In this document: positions 18,618 through 25,966 of the stretch, one piece after another
Numbering within the stretch: position 1 is the stretch's first letter
Layout: the number at the start of each line of letters is the position of its first letter
Assembly (NCBI GenBank): GCA_046350735.1
Contig: JAXLZU010000001.1
Coordinates: forward strand, 750,462-797,647
Source: Candidatus Saccharimonadota bacterium
GTDB lineage: Bacteria > Patescibacteriota > Saccharimonadia > CAILAD01 > BJGX01
Direction: 5' to 3'
DNA length: 47,186 bases
Notes under the pieces: generated by a model
The model's input: the letters and a program-made list of their open reading frames with translations, nothing else
The model's database searches: none
What the model was told of the DNA's origin: nothing
Made by a program: the position numbers and the translations under genes

Positions 18618-19340
18618 CTATCTAGGCAGTTTTTGTGCAAAAACATTTGCTTGCTCGGCTAAGCTATCATCAATTTTGTTGAGCCGAAAATTAATATCAA
18701 CTTTTCTCGCTGCCTGAGAAATAAGAAAATCTGCCAGGCTAGGGTTTTTAGGTAATAGTGGTCCATGTAGATACGTACCAATAGCACTTTTATAGATAGT
18801 ACCTTCAAAACCCGATTCTCTATCATTACCACAACCTTGAATTACCCTTGCTAACGGTTGAGCATTTTTACCCAGGCTAGTCGCGCCACTGTGGTTTTCA
18901 AAACCTACAATAGTACCAAATTCGTCACTTACACAAACAACATTACCTATCATTCTTAATTCTGTTGCTTTTGTTACAACATCAAAAATACTAATTCCTG
19001 CAATTTCTCCTGAATCTTTGGTGAGAAAATACTTACCAAAGAGCTGGTACCCACCACATATAGTTAGGGCTGGTACGCCAGATTCAATATGGTCACGTAT
19101 ATGTACTTTTTTGCCTTGCAAATCTTTACCAACAGCTATCTGCCCCCTATCTTGTCCGCCACCCATAAAGATAAGATCGAATTTACCCTGAAGTTTTTCA
19201 CCTACAGTGTTGGTAATATATTCATAGTTCAGACCGTGCCATTCCATTCGTTTCTGCAGGCAGATAATATTCCCAATATCACCATAGATACTCATTCTAT
19301 CTGGATATAGATGAAGAATTCGCAGAGCTCTCATTGCCAA
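18618..19340 (-). CDS. gatD: GatD (CobQ-like glutamine amidotransferase)
   Basis: YGDIGN, GGGQD, ICGGYQL (catalytic Cys), GFENH, YLHGPLLPKNP. Overlaps murT. Confidence 0.9.
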   Translation of the reverse strand: MAMRALRILHLYPDRMSIYGDIGNIICLQKRMEWHGLNYEYITNTVGEKLQGKFDLIFMGGGQDRGQIAVGKDLQGKKVHIRDHIESGVPALTICGGYQLFGKYFLTKDSGEIAGISIFDVVTKATELRMIGNVVCVSDEFGTIVGFENHSGATSLGKNAQPLARVIQGCGNDRESGFEGTIYKSAIGTYLHGPLLPKNPSLADFLISQAARKVDINFRLNKIDDSLAEQANVFAQKLPR

Positions 19341-20716
19341 AACTCCTTGCTTCCTTGATTATTAACCTGGTTAATGAGTGTTCTCAGGGTAAGCATAGCG
19401 GTGTATGTAGGCAATACAATAACTCGCCGACCCTTGGCTAATTTATGTGCTTTCTCAAGTGCGTTTTTTGTATCAGTCTCAAATATCATCTTGCCGGTAT
19501 AGCCAGCATATGCCAGACGTAGCTGCATATCGAGTGCCCTAGTGCCAGTAACAATCACTGGTCCTCTTCTCCTGGCAAAGTCTTCTACAGCACAATCCCA
19601 TAGCCAAGATACATCACGACCATCAGCAATATTATCATTGATAGCAATGAGTAGTGGGCACGCTGTATCTTTTTGTATAAATGATTGTATTACCTGGTTA
19701 AAGCCAGTTGGATTTTTAATAAGATATAGACCAAACTGAGTTTTACCTATCTTCATAGCCTCGGTTCTGCCAAAAGCTGCGCTCAAATTTGCTAGACTCT
19801 GTGTTAACACAGAGCTTTCTATTCTAAAGAGCTGCGCCATAGCAAAGGCCGGCAAAACATTATAAATATTATAGTTACCCGATAGATTTACAGATACAGA
19901 ATGTAATTCTGTTGTAGTTTTTACTTTTATTTTGATAGATTTACTAGTAGTTTTTGCTATCTTTGTAACATCAATTTGTGGCTTTGGACGGCCAAACACG
20001 CCAGACTTTGTACTATACATACCAATATGACCAAAGTACCGGTGCTTATAAACCAAAGATTCTCCACTAAACGGGTCGACAATACTATCTGCAGTGCGAT
20101 CATGCTCTAAGGCGGTAAATGCAGATGTATCAGACACGCCAAAATACAATACTTTTACGCTTCCGCTAAGTTTCATACCCAGACTTGCTACCAAGGGGTC
20201 ATCGGCGTTCAGAACAAGAGTGGTAGAGCGCAAATTTTTAAACGCCTGCCGAAACTTATTAGCAATACTATCTAACTCACCATATCTGTCAAGCTGATCT
20301 CGAAATAGATTGGTAACCACCACCATTTTTGGCTGCAAAGCAGCCGTCACTTCTGGTAGATAAGCCTCATCTACCTCAAATAATCCAACGCGTGCCCTCG
20401 TAAAACCCTTTAGATTTGCTTCGGTTAGTATCGAGCTAATTACACCCCTACTTAGATTAGAGCCGGCACGATTATTTACGAAGCTAATCTGAGCATTCTG
20501 CAGAACATCGGCCAGCACCTTGGTGGTGGTAGTCTTACCATTTGTACCTGTTACTAATATAACGCCGTCAGGAAAGTTAATACTCCCCAGCTTCTTTAAT
20601 AAATTTGGATCGATACGTTCAGCCAAATATCCAGGTGCAGCTGTGGCAGCAGTTTTTTTTACCCGAGAGGCAGACCTAACCAGTTTGGCAGCCAAAATCG
20701 CTGCTGTTTTCTTCAT
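19331..20716 (-). CDS. murT: MurT ligase (DUF1727 C-terminus)
   Basis: VTGTNGKTTT, EVDEA, NLFRDQLDRYGE, LIKNPTG, NDNIADGRDVSWLWD, PTYTAML. Confidence 0.92.
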   Translation of the reverse strand: MKKTAAILAAKLVRSASRVKKTAATAAPGYLAERIDPNLLKKLGSINFPDGVILVTGTNGKTTTTKVLADVLQNAQISFVNNRAGSNLSRGVISSILTEANLKGFTRARVGLFEVDEAYLPEVTAALQPKMVVVTNLFRDQLDRYGELDSIANKFRQAFKNLRSTTLVLNADDPLVASLGMKLSGSVKVLYFGVSDTSAFTALEHDRTADSIVDPFSGESLVYKHRYFGHIGMYSTKSGVFGRPKPQIDVTKIAKTTSKSIKIKVKTTTELHSVSVNLSGNYNIYNVLPAFAMAQLFRIESSVLTQSLANLSAAFGRTEAMKIGKTQFGLYLIKNPTGFNQVIQSFIQKDTACPLLIAINDNIADGRDVSWLWDCAVEDFARRRGPVIVTGTRALDMQLRLAYAGYTGKMIFETDTKNALEKAHKLAKGRRVIVLPTYTAMLTLRTLINQVNNQGSKEFWQ

Positions 20717-20728
20717 AACTCTATTATA

Positions 20729-21595
20729 TCAAAGCCCAAGATAATCAGATACGCCTCTTTCTGCCTCTAAATAATTTTTAACCCAAATAACAGCAAGGTT
20801 ACGCTTAAACCAAGTTAACTGTTTCTTGGCTAGCTTATACGTTGCTGCATTTATTTGTAGTTCTAGCTCATTCTTTGATGTTGGACTATTGATAAAATCT
20901 AATACTTCTTTGTAGCCAGTGGTTTGCAATTGCACACAATTATCGCCATAGTTATCAACTAAATATTTTACCTCTTGTATAAATCCATTGTTCAACATTG
21001 TTTTTGTTCTAATAGCTATATTTTTCTTTAATATAGGAATTTCTGCATGTATACCAAGCACCAAACTTTCAATTTTGTGAGTCTGTCTATTGTTACTTTT
21101 TACAAACCCCTGCTGCAAAATTTGCTCTAGACGGCGCCTATTGTGTGCATCAGAATTATTTAGTTCGATTTCTGGATACTCTGCTTCTACCCTATGTTGC
21201 AATTCTTCTAATGATAAATTTGTAGTATCTATTCTATTTACTCTCCCACTGCGCTCAAATGTGTAGTCGAATAATAATGAGTCTATATACATGCCGCTTC
21301 CACCTACCAAAAATGGTACCTTACCTCGTAACTGGATATCTCTAATGGCTTTTTGGGCAAGTTTTTTAAACTCTACTACACTAAATGTTTGTCCGGGTTT
21401 AACTACACTTAACAGATGATGAGGAATTTCTTTTTGCTCTTCTTTGCTCGGTTTTGCTGTGCCAACATCCATACCTATATAAATAGTACGACTATCAGCA
21501 CAAACAATCTCGCCGTTAAAATGTTTAGCCAATTGTATAGCCATGGCTGTCTTGCCAGAAGCCGTTGGGCCAAGAATAGTAACTAGTTTTGACAT
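20729..21595 (-). CDS. miaA: tRNA dimethylallyltransferase
   Basis: GPTASGKT, ADSR.IY.GMDVGTAKP, VGGSGMY, AKKQLTWF. Confidence 0.96.
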   Translation of the reverse strand: MSKLVTILGPTASGKTAMAIQLAKHFNGEIVCADSRTIYIGMDVGTAKPSKEEQKEIPHHLLSVVKPGQTFSVVEFKKLAQKAIRDIQLRGKVPFLVGGSGMYIDSLLFDYTFERSGRVNRIDTTNLSLEELQHRVEAEYPEIELNNSDAHNRRRLEQILQQGFVKSNNRQTHKIESLVLGIHAEIPILKKNIAIRTKTMLNNGFIQEVKYLVDNYGDNCVQLQTTGYKEVLDFINSPTSKNELELQINAATYKLAKKQLTWFKRNLAVIWVKNYLEAERGVSDYLGL

Positions 21596-21601
21596 TTGTG
21601 G

Positions 21602-23419
21602 CTAATTCAATGATTTTTCAGATATATTTTTCAATAATGTTGTAATAAAAACATTAATCTTTTGTTGGCCTTCGTCGCCTTTTCCGTACCGCCTTACAGA
21701 TACAGAGCGAGATTTCTGCTCGTTCTCTCCTACAATTAGGGCATATGGCACTTTCATCATTTCGACATTACGAATTTTCTTACTTAAAGACTCAGAGCTA
21801 TCATCTGTCTCTACACGTACCCCAGCCTCCCTTAGCTTTAGTGCTACTTCTTTGGCATATTTGTTAAATTTATCCGACACGGGTAATACTCTTACCTGTT
21901 CTGGTGCCAGCCATACCGGAAAAGCCCCTGCAAAGTGCTCTATTAAGAGCATAATAAAGCGCTCAAAAGATCCGAGTATCGCCCTATGGATCATTACAGG
22001 GTGTTTTTCTTTACCTGCCTGGTCGGTATAAACTAGCTTAAAACGCTTTGGCATAGCAAAGTCGAGCTGAATAGTTGCTAGCTGAGTTTCGCGCCCGAGA
22101 GCGTCTTTAAACATAAAATCAAGCTTAGGGCCATAAATAGCTGCCTCGCCTTCCATTTTTTTGGCATCCAGGCCTCGCTCTTCGGCTATTTCTTTTAGCA
22201 TTCGCTCGGCCTCATCCCAATCAGACGGCTCACCAATGTAAGCCTCAGGTTTTTTAGGGTCTCTCACTGAGAGTGATACCCAGTGATTACCCCACAGGCC
22301 TAAGTTTTTATAAAAACTCTCAATAATTTCGGCAATCATCTCAGCCTCGTGTTTTATCTGATCTACCCGACAAAAGGTATGACCATCATCCACGGTAAAC
22401 CCACGAGTACGTTGTAGCCCTCCGATTTGCCCAGGCTTTTCGTCGCGATACTGCATAGTCTGCTCTATATATCGAATTGGCAAATCACGATAACTGCGTG
22501 GCCGTGATGCATATATTTGAGTGTGGTGGGGGCAATTTACTGGTTTTAAGACAAACTCTTGCTTGTAATGACTCTCTACCTTAAACAATTCATCTTCAAA
22601 CTTCTCGGCATGCCCAGAAATCTTATACAAATCGAGCTTGGCTAGATGCGGAATTGAGACCGGTTGCATATCGTACTTATTACTTATCTCGTTAAGTGCT
22701 GCTTTTAGCTGATTAATAAGCACCGTGCCTTTAGGTGTGTAGAGTGGTAACCCCGGCCCTACTAAATCAGAGAATGTAAACAAATCTAGCTGTTGGCCAA
22801 GTTTGCGATGATCTCGCTTCTCGGCTTCAATTACCATCTGGGCGTATAGATCGAGGCCTGCCTTATTCTCAAAAGCTACACCATATATTCGCTGCATTTG
22901 TGGATTATTTTCATTACCTCGCCAGTACGCACCAGCTAATTTATCGAGTTTAAAGCTATCAACATCAATTTCGCTGGTGTTTTTAACATGCGGACCACGG
23001 CACAAGTCTACAAAATCACCCGTTTTGTACACACTAACTGTTGTAATTTTGTCAACTGAATTGTCAATTAACTCTGAATCGCCAGCATCGGCTACTGCAG
23101 TAGTGCCTTTTGTTTTAAGGTCGTTAAGGAGTTCTACCTTAAAATCTTGCTTGTGCTCTTTAAAGTACTTTATTGCCTCCTCTATTGGCCACTCTTCGCG
23201 TACAAAGTCTAGCTTGGCAGATATAAGCTTCTTCATCTCTTTTTGTACTTTCTTCAGTTCTTGCGCGTCTAGAGGATGTTCTAGCTTAATGTCATAATAA
23301 AACCCATTTTCTATTACTGGGCCTACGCCAAACTGAGCATCTTTATGAAGCTTTTGCACAGCAGCTGCCATTATGTGTGCCAAGCTATGACGAATCTTAT
23401 CTAGTTTTGCATCTGACAT
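21602..23419 (-). CDS. thrS: Threonyl-tRNA synthetase (no N-terminal TGS domain)
   Basis: RHSLAHIMA editing domain, DLCRGPH, KPVNCPHH, QRTRGFTVDDGH, IHRAILGSFER. AAGGAG SD. Confidence 0.98.
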   Translation of the reverse strand: MSDAKLDKIRHSLAHIMAAAVQKLHKDAQFGVGPVIENGFYYDIKLEHPLDAQELKKVQKEMKKLISAKLDFVREEWPIEEAIKYFKEHKQDFKVELLNDLKTKGTTAVADAGDSELIDNSVDKITTVSVYKTGDFVDLCRGPHVKNTSEIDVDSFKLDKLAGAYWRGNENNPQMQRIYGVAFENKAGLDLYAQMVIEAEKRDHRKLGQQLDLFTFSDLVGPGLPLYTPKGTVLINQLKAALNEISNKYDMQPVSIPHLAKLDLYKISGHAEKFEDELFKVESHYKQEFVLKPVNCPHHTQIYASRPRSYRDLPIRYIEQTMQYRDEKPGQIGGLQRTRGFTVDDGHTFCRVDQIKHEAEMIAEIIESFYKNLGLWGNHWVSLSVRDPKKPEAYIGEPSDWDEAERMLKEIAEERGLDAKKMEGEAAIYGPKLDFMFKDALGRETQLATIQLDFAMPKRFKLVYTDQAGKEKHPVMIHRAILGSFERFIMLLIEHFAGAFPVWLAPEQVRVLPVSDKFNKYAKEVALKLREAGVRVETDDSSESLSKKIRNVEMMKVPYALIVGENEQKSRSVSVRRYGKGDEGQQKINVFITTLLKNISEKSLN

Positions 23420-23600
23420 GGTATTTTCTCCTTATAAAACAAAAACCGCCCTATTTACCAAGTCCCAATAACTTCTTGGGAGGTTCCACTTGGTTTATCC
23501 ATGGCGGATCTCTCTTTTGCATATGTACGCCATATGCTGGCGAGACTTCGCAGGTTGGTGAGGTCTGCTACTTCGTCTTATGTAGCTGCCTAGTATTATA
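23420..23600 (-). promoter_or_regulatory. Structured ~170-nt thrS leader (T-box-like / tRNA-mimic)
   Basis: TATAAT at 23600-23595. Hairpins gctac/gtagc and gcatatg-GCGTA-catatgc. Fold ccaag-TGGAACC-tcccaa...ttggga-cttgg, closed by ccgcc/ggcgg and followed by a T run. Confidence 0.6.
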
Positions 23601-23700
23601 CCAAGAAGTTATGTATTTGTACAAGAAGGTATTGCAGTTACTTTTATTGCAAATAAAGACAATTTTGCACTAAACAAACAATTTTAACCACTATTTTTTA

Positions 23701-25929
23701 TTATTCCTCTATCTCTTCTGGTTCTTCTTCTTCCTCTTCTTCTTCATATACAGGATACCATTGCCATTTATCTGCAAACTGTGGATACTCTTTTTGGAGC
23801 AGTAACCTCTCACTATGGCTTAGATTGTAGATATGGATTTGCCCGCCGATCGTCTCAGGCAGCTGTAAACCTTCGGCTGTGGTCAGGCTGCTAAGATAGA
23901 GATCCCCGCCGATCGTCTCAGGCAGCTGTAAACCTTCAGCTGTGGTCAGGCTGCTGAGGTAGAGATCATCGCCAATCGTCTCGGGCAGCTGTAAGCCATC
24001 AGCCGAGGTCAGGCTGTCGAGGTCGAGATAACCACCGATCGTCTCGGGCAGATGCAAGCCATCGGCTGAGGTTAGGCCTTCGAGTATGAGATAACCACCG
24101 ACCGTCTTGGGTAGCTGTAAACCTTCGGCTGAGGTCAGGCTTCTGAGGTTGATACCACCACCGATCGTCTCGGGCAGCTGTAAGCCTTCGGCTGAGGTCA
24201 GGCCGGAGAGGTAGAGATAACCACCGATCGTCTCGGGCAGCTGTAAGCCTTCGGCTGAGGTCAGGCCGGAGAGGTCGAGATAACCACCGATCGTCTCGGG
24301 CAGCTGTAAGCCTTCGGCTGAGGTCAGGCTTCTGAGGTTGATACCACCACCAATCGTCTCGGGCAGCTGTAAGCCTTCGGCTGAAGTCAGGCCGGAGAGG
24401 TCGAGATAACCACCGATCGTCTCGGGCAGCTGTAAGCCTTCGGCTGAGGTCAGGCCGCTGAGGTTGAGATTACCACCAATCGTCTCGGGCAGCTGTAAGC
24501 CTTCGGTTGAAGTCAGGCCGGAGAGGTCGAGATAACCATAGTGATAGAGTATATTGCCCCTCAACGCCTCTTCTTTTGTTAGACTAATTTGTTCGGGCTG
24601 TACATCTAATGTAAAGGCCAAATCAACCCTTGGGTTGCGAGTTTGTAATAGCTCGGCAATCCGTGGGTCCTTCATATAACCAAAGCCTTCAATCTTACTA
24701 TCTAGTTCGTAGAGAAATCTCAGCTGGTCTTTGCTAAGCTCGGCACTCGGATTAGCTTTGAGCAGGTTGTCTATCTCGGTGAGGCGGCGCATGTCCTCTG
24801 AGCGTTTCTTGTATTGCTGGGCGCCTTCGGGGTCTATCTCAGCAAGCTTGGCATCGGCAATGGGTACCAACTCAGCTTCCATATTCTGGTCGGCCTCAAT
24901 TCCCCGTACCTCTGCAATGTGTTGCTGGCCATATTCTTCTTGCATACGAATAGCTACACGAGGTACCGAGTACTGACCATCTTCGCTTTTGGTATAGTAG
25001 ACATAAAAGTCACCACCGCTCAGTTGGCTATGCGCCATACCTTCGCCGGCCGTACACCAGCCAGTGCCATAGCCATGCAGTGAGTGGGCTAGCTCTTTAC
25101 TCTTACTCTCATCACTTGTCTGGTCGTACTTTATCCATCGGCCATCGGTAACATTGAGCTGCTCAGCGTGCTTGGGGGCAGCATATTCAATGGCGCGTTT
25201 GTAGAGACTGGCAAAGTTGGCATCTCTATCTAAGAGCGCTTGAGTTTCTGGGTTGATAGCGTCCTTAGGGTTATCTGGGTCAATATCTTTGAGACCATAG
25301 TGTTTGGCTAAGCTGTCTTCCATATACGCCAAGGCTTCGCGATTAATGTCTGGGAACGGTGCAGTGGTAGATTTAGAACGCTTGGGGAACTCACCCTTTT
25401 GTTTGTCGTAGTCGGCCAGACGGGTAATGTTGCGGAAGGTGTAGTACTTAAACCACATTGGGTACGTGGCATCGTCGCTAGTGAGGTAATCTAGCCAGGC
25501 GTCGAGACTACGTTCTTGGTCGGTTCGAATTGTCTCTCTGGCCTCGGCTCGCACTTGGTCGTTTGCTCGGGCCATAATATCTTCAATGGCGCCGTGGCCT
25601 TGCTCGTGGGCAATCTGGGCTTGATGGTGTAAATACCGTTCTATAGAGGGGTCATCAAGACCAGTAATATAGCCGCCCTCTTGGGTTGGACGATGGTAGA
25701 GAGTTTTTATGCGCTCGTAAATTTGTGGCTGCGCGGCTTGGCGGGCCTCACTACCACCTTTACCCGTGTGAGTTCTCTCTACTAACCGAAGCCAAGCTTC
25801 TAGCTTGGGTGCTGGCTCGTTGGGAATACGCTCACCATGCTGACGCAGACGGGCAACCTCGTGCTCTACCGGCTGAGATGTATGTAGCTCAGAGTATTTT
25901 GACTGCAGAGGATGCTTTTCCATAAGCAT
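23701..25929 (-). CDS. Large hypothetical protein: conserved N-terminal domain, 11 LRR-like repeats and a poly-Glu tail
   Basis: 748-aa tracked ORF; the likely start is MLMEK at 25929. GTGWCTAG motif, (GGxLxLxxLTSAEGLQLPETI) repeats and an EEEEEEEEPEEIEE end. Confidence 0.9.
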   Translation of the reverse strand: MLMEKHPLQSKYSELHTSQPVEHEVARLRQHGERIPNEPAPKLEAWLRLVERTHTGKGGSEARQAAQPQIYERIKTLYHRPTQEGGYITGLDDPSIERYLHHQAQIAHEQGHGAIEDIMARANDQVRAEARETIRTDQERSLDAWLDYLTSDDATYPMWFKYYTFRNITRLADYDKQKGEFPKRSKSTTAPFPDINREALAYMEDSLAKHYGLKDIDPDNPKDAINPETQALLDRDANFASLYKRAIEYAAPKHAEQLNVTDGRWIKYDQTSDESKSKELAHSLHGYGTGWCTAGEGMAHSQLSGGDFYVYYTKSEDGQYSVPRVAIRMQEEYGQQHIAEVRGIEADQNMEAELVPIADAKLAEIDPEGAQQYKKRSEDMRRLTEIDNLLKANPSAELSKDQLRFLYELDSKIEGFGYMKDPRIAELLQTRNPRVDLAFTLDVQPEQISLTKEEALRGNILYHYGYLDLSGLTSTEGLQLPETIGGNLNLSGLTSAEGLQLPETIGGYLDLSGLTSAEGLQLPETIGGGINLRSLTSAEGLQLPETIGGYLDLSGLTSAEGLQLPETIGGYLYLSGLTSAEGLQLPETIGGGINLRSLTSAEGLQLPKTVGGYLILEGLTSADGLHLPETIGGYLDLDSLTSADGLQLPETIGDDLYLSSLTTAEGLQLPETIGGDLYLSSLTTAEGLQLPETIGGQIHIYNLSHSERLLLQKEYPQFADKWQWYPVYEEEEEEEEPEEIEE
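23848..24540 (-). repeat. Intragenic tandem array, 11 x 63 bp (21-aa LRR-like unit)
   Basis: The 63-bp period was checked (CCGATCGTC at 24161 and 24224). A 189-bp higher-order match exists between the GGGINLRS units (24141 and 24330). Confidence 0.97.
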
Positions 25930-25966
25930 TATTATAACAAAAAACACCTGCCTGGTGTTTATTATA

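Follow-up and report, generated by a model that had tools for sequence, protein, structure and literature searches.

T-boxes are tRNA-sensing riboswitches that serve as a model system for RNA-RNA recognition and have been proposed as an antibiotic target. Those of class I (RF00230), such as the leaders of Bacillus subtilis tyrS, thrS and glyQS, precede aminoacyl-tRNA synthetase genes and present a specifier codon followed by a purine. Further downstream they carry an RRRxG-Stem III-AA string and then helix A1, a UGGNACC bulge, and helix A2, where N matches the discriminator base of the tRNA, and their default fold is a terminator hairpin with a U-tract. T-boxes that act on transcription generally depend on a long Stem I whose platform binds the tRNA elbow, and a 2020 review takes the view that terminator-type representatives need this length for fast enough tRNA capture (PMC7583486). 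Class I RNAs also have a Stem II S-turn and a Stem IIA/B pseudoknot with the F-box, which are absent in glycine T-boxes (PMC7583486). An ‘ultrashort’ Stem I occurs in the ileS T-boxes of Actinobacteria (class II; Mycobacterium, Nocardia farcinica), according to the account of Sherwood et al. 2015 given in PMC7583486. These RNAs sequester the Shine-Dalgarno (SD) sequence and retain both a long Stem II with an S-turn and a IIA/B pseudoknot, which reinforce codon reading (PMC7583486). The thrS gene of E. coli is controlled by a translational operator, where threonyl-tRNA synthetase (ThrRS) binds anticodon-arm mimics next to the SD. Here we describe the thrS leader, ~165 nt on the minus strand, in a 47,186-nucleotide stretch of DNA (the window; contig JAXLZU010000001.1, positions 750,462 to 797,647) from a Candidatus Saccharimonadota bacterium of the candidate phyla radiation (CPR). 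This leader is very probably a minimal threonine-specific T-box riboswitch that controls thrS by transcription attenuation, with Stem III as the proposed switch.

The leader (Table 1) shares with class I T-boxes its place before an aminoacyl-tRNA synthetase gene, a specifier followed by a purine, the RRRxG-Stem III-AA string, and the succession of A1, a UGGNACC bulge matched to the discriminator base, and A2. Its default fold is likewise predicted to be a terminator hairpin with a U-tract. With the actinobacterial ileS T-boxes it has in common a very short Stem I without an elbow platform and an equal discriminator core, as well as the kind of gene regulated.

A ThrRS search across 60 related genomes yielded 30 thrS loci. 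All readable leaders contain GUGGNACC, usually 59-82 nt upstream of the assigned thrS start codon, and all except one contain GUGGAACC, which is replaced by GUGGGACC in L009. Two sets of leaders were compared. The first comprises 28 thrS leaders from the order to which the window's organism belongs, placed in a plain MAFFT alignment from which a covariance model with rough E-values was built. The second comprises 70 leaders from the class Saccharimonadia that were aligned to this model; being model-fitted, their pairing figures lean towards the structure. In the 28-leader alignment, 88.7% of the whole fold is paired and compensatory changes are seen at 25 of the 30 pairs. None of 500 shuffles reaches the observed pairing, and slid controls all collapse to 22-45% paired. 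Across the 70 leaders, 95.4% of cells are paired overall, with the inner hairpin of Stem I and a hairpin carrying a CGN loop (the CGN hairpin) aligning less well than the 3′ domain. The covariance model scores 133.7 bits (E 6e-27) at the window site, which is its sole match in the genome. Because the single-sequence fold is only a modest gain over shuffles (z-score −2.3), support for the structure comes from comparison with relatives and not from folding energy. As judged from these alignments, the predicted fold agrees among relatives far more than chance would allow, and the 70 Saccharimonadia thrS leaders share one covarying fold.

The very short Stem I is well supported by this comparison. 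Its base helix is 98.2% paired among the 28 leaders, with a compensatory change at all four pairs, and 98.9% paired among the 70, where the inner hairpin reaches 91.4%. The loop of Stem I is conserved (consensus CUAACCAAC) and holds a Thr codon followed by a purine in 69 of the 69 readable leaders of the larger set, with ACC in 63, ACU in 4, and ACG in 2. When the next base is included, the counts are ACCA 54, ACCG 9, ACUA 4, ACGA 1, and ACG- 1. An ACA specifier is present in another CPR class, and such synonymous changes (ACC, ACU, ACG, and ACA) are what a specifier role predicts. The initial annotation of this locus had drawn attention to three ACC triplets (gACCtcACCaACC, 23565-23553). All three are present, and only the middle one aligns with the conserved codon position of the relatives. 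Its remark that no canonical Stem I exists holds for the long form of this stem, but overlooks the very short one with a specifier in its terminal loop. A kink-turn at the base of Stem I is not claimed; most relatives have UUUGAG...AA at this place, and the genus of the window has GAAGUAG...CGAA.

The second point of tRNA recognition would be the bulge between A1 and A2. The annotation had proposed an alignment of related thrS leaders, and in this alignment the bulge is preserved along with the Thr codon, reading UGGAACC in 68 of the 70 leaders and UGGGACC in the other two. The UGGA portion is complementary to the U73-C-C-A end of all three tRNA-Thr genes in the genome. The tRNA-Thr of four relatives also ends in U73-CCA, including those of the two UGGG genomes, in which the pairing would include a G.U pair. 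The flanking helices, first described as CCAAG-UGGAACC-UCCCAA...UUGGGA-CUUGG at 23493-23458, are present as drawn. Among the 28 leaders, A1 and A2 are each 98.8% paired, with compensatory changes at five of six pairs in each; among the 70 they are 99.3% and 95.4% paired, respectively, again with compensatory changes. Stem III is 100% paired in the smaller set and 99.2% in the larger, where all four of its pairs show compensatory change. The RRRxG motif is found in 64 of the 70 leaders, and the AA that follows Stem III is found in all 70. The GAGAG-AUCC...GGAU-AA string of the window agrees with the T-box discriminator signature 5′-RRRxG-Stem III-AA-3′ (Li et al. 2019, as summarized in PMC7583486).

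Second matches of the covariance model in relatives precede genes with N-termini that resemble ileS most closely. These ileS leaders of the same lineage carry a UGGU bulge, and the tRNA-Ile of the window's own genome has the A73 to match. In several of them, AUC or AUU can be read by eye in the loop of Stem I, with the codon not placeable in all. Hence, both the codon and the bulge vary according to the amino acid, which is the classical evidence for a T-box. The window's own genome has a T-box-like ileS leader as well, outside the window at approximately C1 612510-612800 on the minus strand. It contains a UGGUACC bulge, a small loop with AUU, and two CGUAA motifs; its terminator lies separately downstream and shares 2-3 nt with A1. 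This leader is missed by both RF00230 and the thrS covariance model.

The expression platform appears to be an intrinsic terminator wrapped around the T-box hairpin. Its CCGCC/GGCGG closure and the UUUUUGUUUU tract before the SD, both reported at the outset, are present as listed. Written as CCRCC/GGYGG, the helix is 95.7% paired, and its central pair is A:U in 18 cases, G:C in 4, and G:U in 4. Other covarying registers are also found, such as CCAGUU/AGCUGG in L008 and AUCCAG/CUGGAU in L023. The 5′ strand of the terminator is made of the 3′ half of the Stem III 5′ strand together with the Stem III loop, and in some leaders (L029) it covers all of Stem III. Because of this shared strand, Stem III and the terminator base helix are mutually exclusive in the predicted folds, whereas the A1-bulge-A2 hairpin is common to both. 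The earlier description of the U-tract helix as nested around the bulge fold rather than mutually exclusive with it is accurate for A1 and A2, but exclusion does apply to Stem III. The nested terminator is the unconstrained minimum free energy (MFE) structure in 23 of the 28 leaders, with an energy 3-8.5 kcal/mol lower than that of the Stem III fold, and the MFE structure of the remaining five is the nested fold in a shifted register. In T-boxes the OFF state is the more stable one and must be held off temporarily by tRNA (PMC7583486), and the stability of the terminator over the Stem III fold fits this logic. A canonical terminator in which GGGCGG pairs with CCUCCC of A2 was rejected, as the mismatch at the centre of this pairing is constant and the two strands do not covary. 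GGYGG covaries with CCRCC in Stem III and with no other segment.

Given the covarying fold, the rules that the codon and the bulge follow, and the pairings that exclude each other, we infer that the leader would bind tRNA-Thr and use Stem III to decide whether transcription ends at the U-tract. In this mechanism, uncharged tRNA-Thr would be read twice. Its GGU anticodon (a tRNA-Thr(GGU) is encoded in the genome) would pair with ACC in the terminal loop of Stem I, and its free U73-C-C-A 3′ end would pair with UGGA of the bulge, in a receptor hairpin (A1-bulge-A2) that would be preformed in both states. The purine string of the RRRxG-Stem III-AA segment and Stem III itself would pack around the tRNA/bulge duplex. 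By default, a long interrupted hairpin with its CCGCC/GGCGG base helix beside the U-tract would end transcription before thrS. When stabilized by tRNA, Stem III would withhold CCGCC from GGCGG and RNA polymerase would pass the U-tract.

The same T-box sensor might instead work through another switch, in which tRNA bound at the bulge blocks termination directly, either through its size or by delaying the closing of the base helix close to RNA polymerase, or in which a cis pairing of UCCR with UGGA takes part. The terminator encloses the T-box hairpin and the two can coexist, Stem III is short, and its 5′ strand is UCCA or UCCG in own-order leaders, a sequence complementary to UGGA. In addition, in other Saccharimonadia families the terminator of the thrS leader is a separate one that shares only 2-3 nt with A1, and so a weak overlap seems to be tolerated in this lineage. 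However, we consider this alternative unlikely, given that, whichever of several covarying registers is used, the 5′ strand of the terminator coincides with the 5′ strand or the loop of Stem III, and that it spans the whole of Stem III in L029 and others like it. Furthermore, Stem III is invariant in sequence in 26 of the 28 own-order leaders. Stem III is variable in canonical T-boxes, and invariance is expected for a strand that is under two pairing constraints. As a separate observation, the UCCG in the window (23508-23505; UCCA in most of the order) is complementary to UGGA of the bulge (23488-23485), as if the 3′ end of a tRNA-Thr were provided in cis. This complementarity could be a third, self-inhibited conformer or a by-product of the other pairings.

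Several observations weigh against a T-box that switches through Stem III. Stem III has only 4 bp, and the overlap with the terminator strand amounts to two paired bases and the loop. A 5-bp base helix that closes a ~60-nt insert is an unusual intrinsic terminator, and a simple terminator scan flags nothing at the leader because the stem is interrupted. The Stem I region spans just 36 nt and forms one small hairpin. Unlike in class I T-boxes, it consists of a 4-bp base and a 3-6-bp hairpin, presents the codon in a terminal rather than an internal loop, and lacks both the AG bulge and the distal-loop platform that binds the tRNA elbow. Neither a Stem II S-turn nor a IIA/B pseudoknot is recognizable in the leader, and a search of the 341-nt leader region with Rfam 15 at E≤10 returned no T-box. 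A G.U pair at the base of A2 has been described as the main sensor of the aminoacyl group. In contrast, the corresponding pair (23481/23463) is U:A in the window and U:A or C:G in all 34 own-order leaders. Across the class, G:U occupies this position in only 16 of 70 leaders, and Saccharimonadia outside the order have G:U, G:C, or A:U. Because all 34 own-order leaders are without the G.U pair, the window's order may sense tRNA charging differently. The platform is also unlike that of class I, since its terminator takes the 5′ strand from Stem III and encloses A1 and A2, whereas the textbook terminator uses the 3′ strands of A1 and A2 (PMC7583486).

Between Stem I and Stem III the leader has a single short hairpin, where the actinobacterial ileS T-boxes have their Stem II domain. 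The perfect 7-bp hairpin with a GCGUA loop that had been annotated at 23537-23519 does exist. It was proposed to mimic the anticodon arm of tRNA-Thr(CGU) and to bind ThrRS beside a T-box-like bulge, in the manner of the E. coli operator, which regulates the equal gene and also has a leader hairpin with a CGU loop. A CGU triplet is indeed present in this loop and in those of 53 of the 70 leaders, and a tRNA-Thr(CGU) gene is located inside the window. U36 is an identity element for ThrRS, but the U of CGU is replaced in 16 of the 70 leaders (by C in 10, A in 5, and G in 1), and one further, misaligned row reads GAG. Thus, the C and the G are invariant and the position of the hairpin is conserved, whereas the third base varies and the loop size differs among relatives. 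The loop in the window is a pentaloop closed by a G:C pair, without a U33-like base. Moreover, the ileS leaders of the same lineage bear an equivalent loop of the CGUAA or CGUUA type, and in the T-box consensus of Rfam the corresponding position, between Stem I and Stem III, is occupied by the F-box (CCGUUA). On these comparative grounds, the hairpin is a generic, F-box-like structural element of the T-box and is not specific to an amino acid; its counterpart may be either Stem II or Stem IIA/B. It cannot act like the E. coli operator because it lies ~85 nt upstream of the SD. There is also no second mimic domain, and the comparative evidence points to tRNA sensing rather than protein binding. 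An anticodon mimic for ThrRS is therefore hardly credible. What survives of the hybrid Thr-sensing leader envisaged in the initial annotation is the T-box portion, with its UGGN bulge, codon, and covarying Stem III. A pseudoknot could form between an upstream CG (23542-23541) and the CG of the loop (23529-23528) with plausible geometry; these bases never vary, and their neighbours are without consistent covariation.

A translational T-box or a constitutive structured leader, which would act on ribosome access or mRNA stability instead of termination or be devoid of tRNA sensing, would be a further explanation for the conserved structure. So far, very short Stem I elements have been found mostly in translational T-boxes (PMC7583486), and in this genome the GGAG of the SD is a potential partner of CUCC in A2. 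We nevertheless judge this explanation to be very improbable. All own-order leaders have the helix with a U-tract of 4-6 U, followed after 10-15 nt by an SD that the predicted folds leave unpaired. This arrangement differs from that of the actinobacterial ileS T-boxes, which sequester their SD and are specific for Ile rather than Thr, and the leader does not show the SD sequestration that characterizes class II. The complementarity between A2 and the SD fails in relatives, as in L029, where CCCCCC would face AGAGGAG, and sequestration by A2 was rejected for this reason. Conservation of the codon and bulge rules, in turn, speaks against a leader that does not sense tRNA.

The attenuating T-box proposed here is widespread in the order of the window's organism. 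The covariance model matches 57 of the 60 listed own-order genomes (G000-G059), and its best match is directly 5′ of thrS in every one that was cross-checked (~30). At the level of the class, 133 of 301 genomes have a match. An exact-pattern scan of 185,579 species genomes located 36 further sites, which are in metagenome-assembled genomes labelled Saccharibacteria, Saccharimonadia, or Patescibacteria, or carrying no taxon label. Among 301 sampled Patescibacteria there are 25 matches in total, 5 of them within the class, and 20 genomes outside the class have a match. Ten of these outside loci were inspected: thrS is the first downstream open reading frame (ORF) in six, and the rest start with a short unidentified ORF. 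The expression platform varies within the CPR, being nested in some leaders, a separate hairpin that overlaps A1 by 2-3 nt in others, and a canonical overlap in still others. We regard it as an evenly balanced proposition that some CPR lineages, Saccharibacteria included, carry an uncatalogued minimal class of transcriptional T-boxes of ~145 nt. Such RNAs would reach their decision during transcription although they have neither an elbow platform nor a Stem II with an S-turn, and those of this order would also do so without a G.U sensor. Stem III would swap with the terminator.

Existing models and surveys largely pass over these leaders. Rfam 15 finds no T-box in the whole window at gathering score, and the window and region searches return only chance-level matches, for example to freshwater-2 and snoRNAs. 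The gathering threshold of RF00230 is 93 bits. A search of the whole genome with this model misses the thrS leader, which is thus unlike class I RNAs in receiving no RF00230 score, and matches another leader at 41.6 bits. At the thrS loci of 14 relatives, RF00230 gives one weak full-length match of 24.8 bits against the 93-bit cut-off, which weakly suggests T-box homology. The TBDB database is based on RF00230 and a class II model, the latter applied to Actinobacteria and to those RF00230 hits whose Stem I is truncated. Surveys of the Rfam and TBDB type miss the thrS leader because they depend on RF00230 and this restricted class II model. Full-text literature searches linking T-box with CPR, Patescibacteria, Saccharibacteria, or TM7 returned nothing relevant.

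The other leader matched by RF00230 is a second T-box-like element of the same genome, located outside the window at C1:647382-647618 on the minus strand (locus L001:1501-1737). This element looks canonical and is full-length, has a UGGC bulge and a terminator formed from the A1/A2 3′ strands, and scores below the RF00230 cut-off. It lies upstream of a 100-aa ORF without an NCBIfam match, and a gene for a protein resembling an ATP-binding cassette (ABC) ATPase begins ~150 nt past this ORF.

If the proposed mechanism is correct, a minimal terminator-linked T-box would put the rule that such RNAs need a long Stem I to experimental test. It would also offer a small construct for structural work and represent a second way of coupling the discriminator to an expression platform. 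The thrS leader would extend tRNA-sensing riboswitches to the ultrasmall bacteria of the CPR, in which, to our knowledge, almost no gene regulation has been characterized.

Table 1. Elements of the thrS leader and adjacent sequences, listed in the direction of transcription (positions in the window)
Feature	Position	Strand	Details
Candidate sigma-70-like promoter TGTACA-17-TATAAT	23623-23595	minus	10/12 consensus match; TG ahead of the -10 hexamer
Very short Stem I	23578-23543	minus	Base helix AGAC (23578-23575) / GUCU (23546-23543)
Stem I inner hairpin	23568-23565 / 23553-23550	minus	11-nt terminal loop
Specifier ACC (Thr) and 3′ purine A	23559-23557, A23556	minus	Terminal loop of Stem I
CGN hairpin GCAUAUG-GCGUA-CAUAUGC	23537-23519	minus	Stem II region; perfect 7 bp, F-box-like loop
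Purine string GAGAG (RRRxG motif)	23514-23510	minus	5′ of Stem III
Stem III AUCC / GGAU, loop GCCAU	23509-23506 / 23500-23497	minus	Followed by AA (23496-23495)
Helix A1	23494-23489 / 23462-23457	minus	One pair longer than initially annotated
7-nt bulge UGGAACC	23488-23482	minus	Between A1 and A2
Helix A2	23481-23476 / 23468-23463	minus	T-box hairpin 23457-23494
Nested intrinsic terminator (putative OFF state)	23507-23436	minus	CCGCC (23507-23503) / GGCGG (23450-23446)
U-tract UUUUUGUUUU	23445-23436	minus	Directly 3′ of GGCGG
SD AAGGAG	23433-23428	minus	Upstream of thrS ATG
thrS	ATG at 23419; SD and gene 21602-23433	minus	605 aa

The leader sits between the sigma-70-like promoter and thrS. Promoter-like hexamers recur at equal distance in the thrS leaders of relatives, and the match to the promoter consensus predicts a transcript start a few nt 5′ of Stem I. 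The thrS product is a threonine--tRNA ligase (TIGR00418, 640.7 bits against a cut-off of 383.65) with the Pfam domains tRNA-synt_2b, HGTP_anticodon, and tRNA_SAD. On the plus strand, a 98-aa ORF with a GTG start (23377-23673) runs antisense to the leader and the start of thrS. Lacking any NCBIfam family match and lying across the covarying RNA, this ORF is probably spurious. Upstream of the leader, a gene on the minus strand (23701-25947) encodes a 748-aa protein and ends 78 nt before the thrS promoter. Its only Pfam match is sub-threshold (Glutaredoxin2_C, 27.6 bits against a cut-off of 32.8). Close 3′ of thrS and on the same strand (19331-21595, minus) are miaA, which encodes an isopentenyl pyrophosphate (IPP) transferase, and a gene for a MurT-like ligase. 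If these two genes are co-transcribed with thrS, T-box control may reach beyond the synthetase gene.

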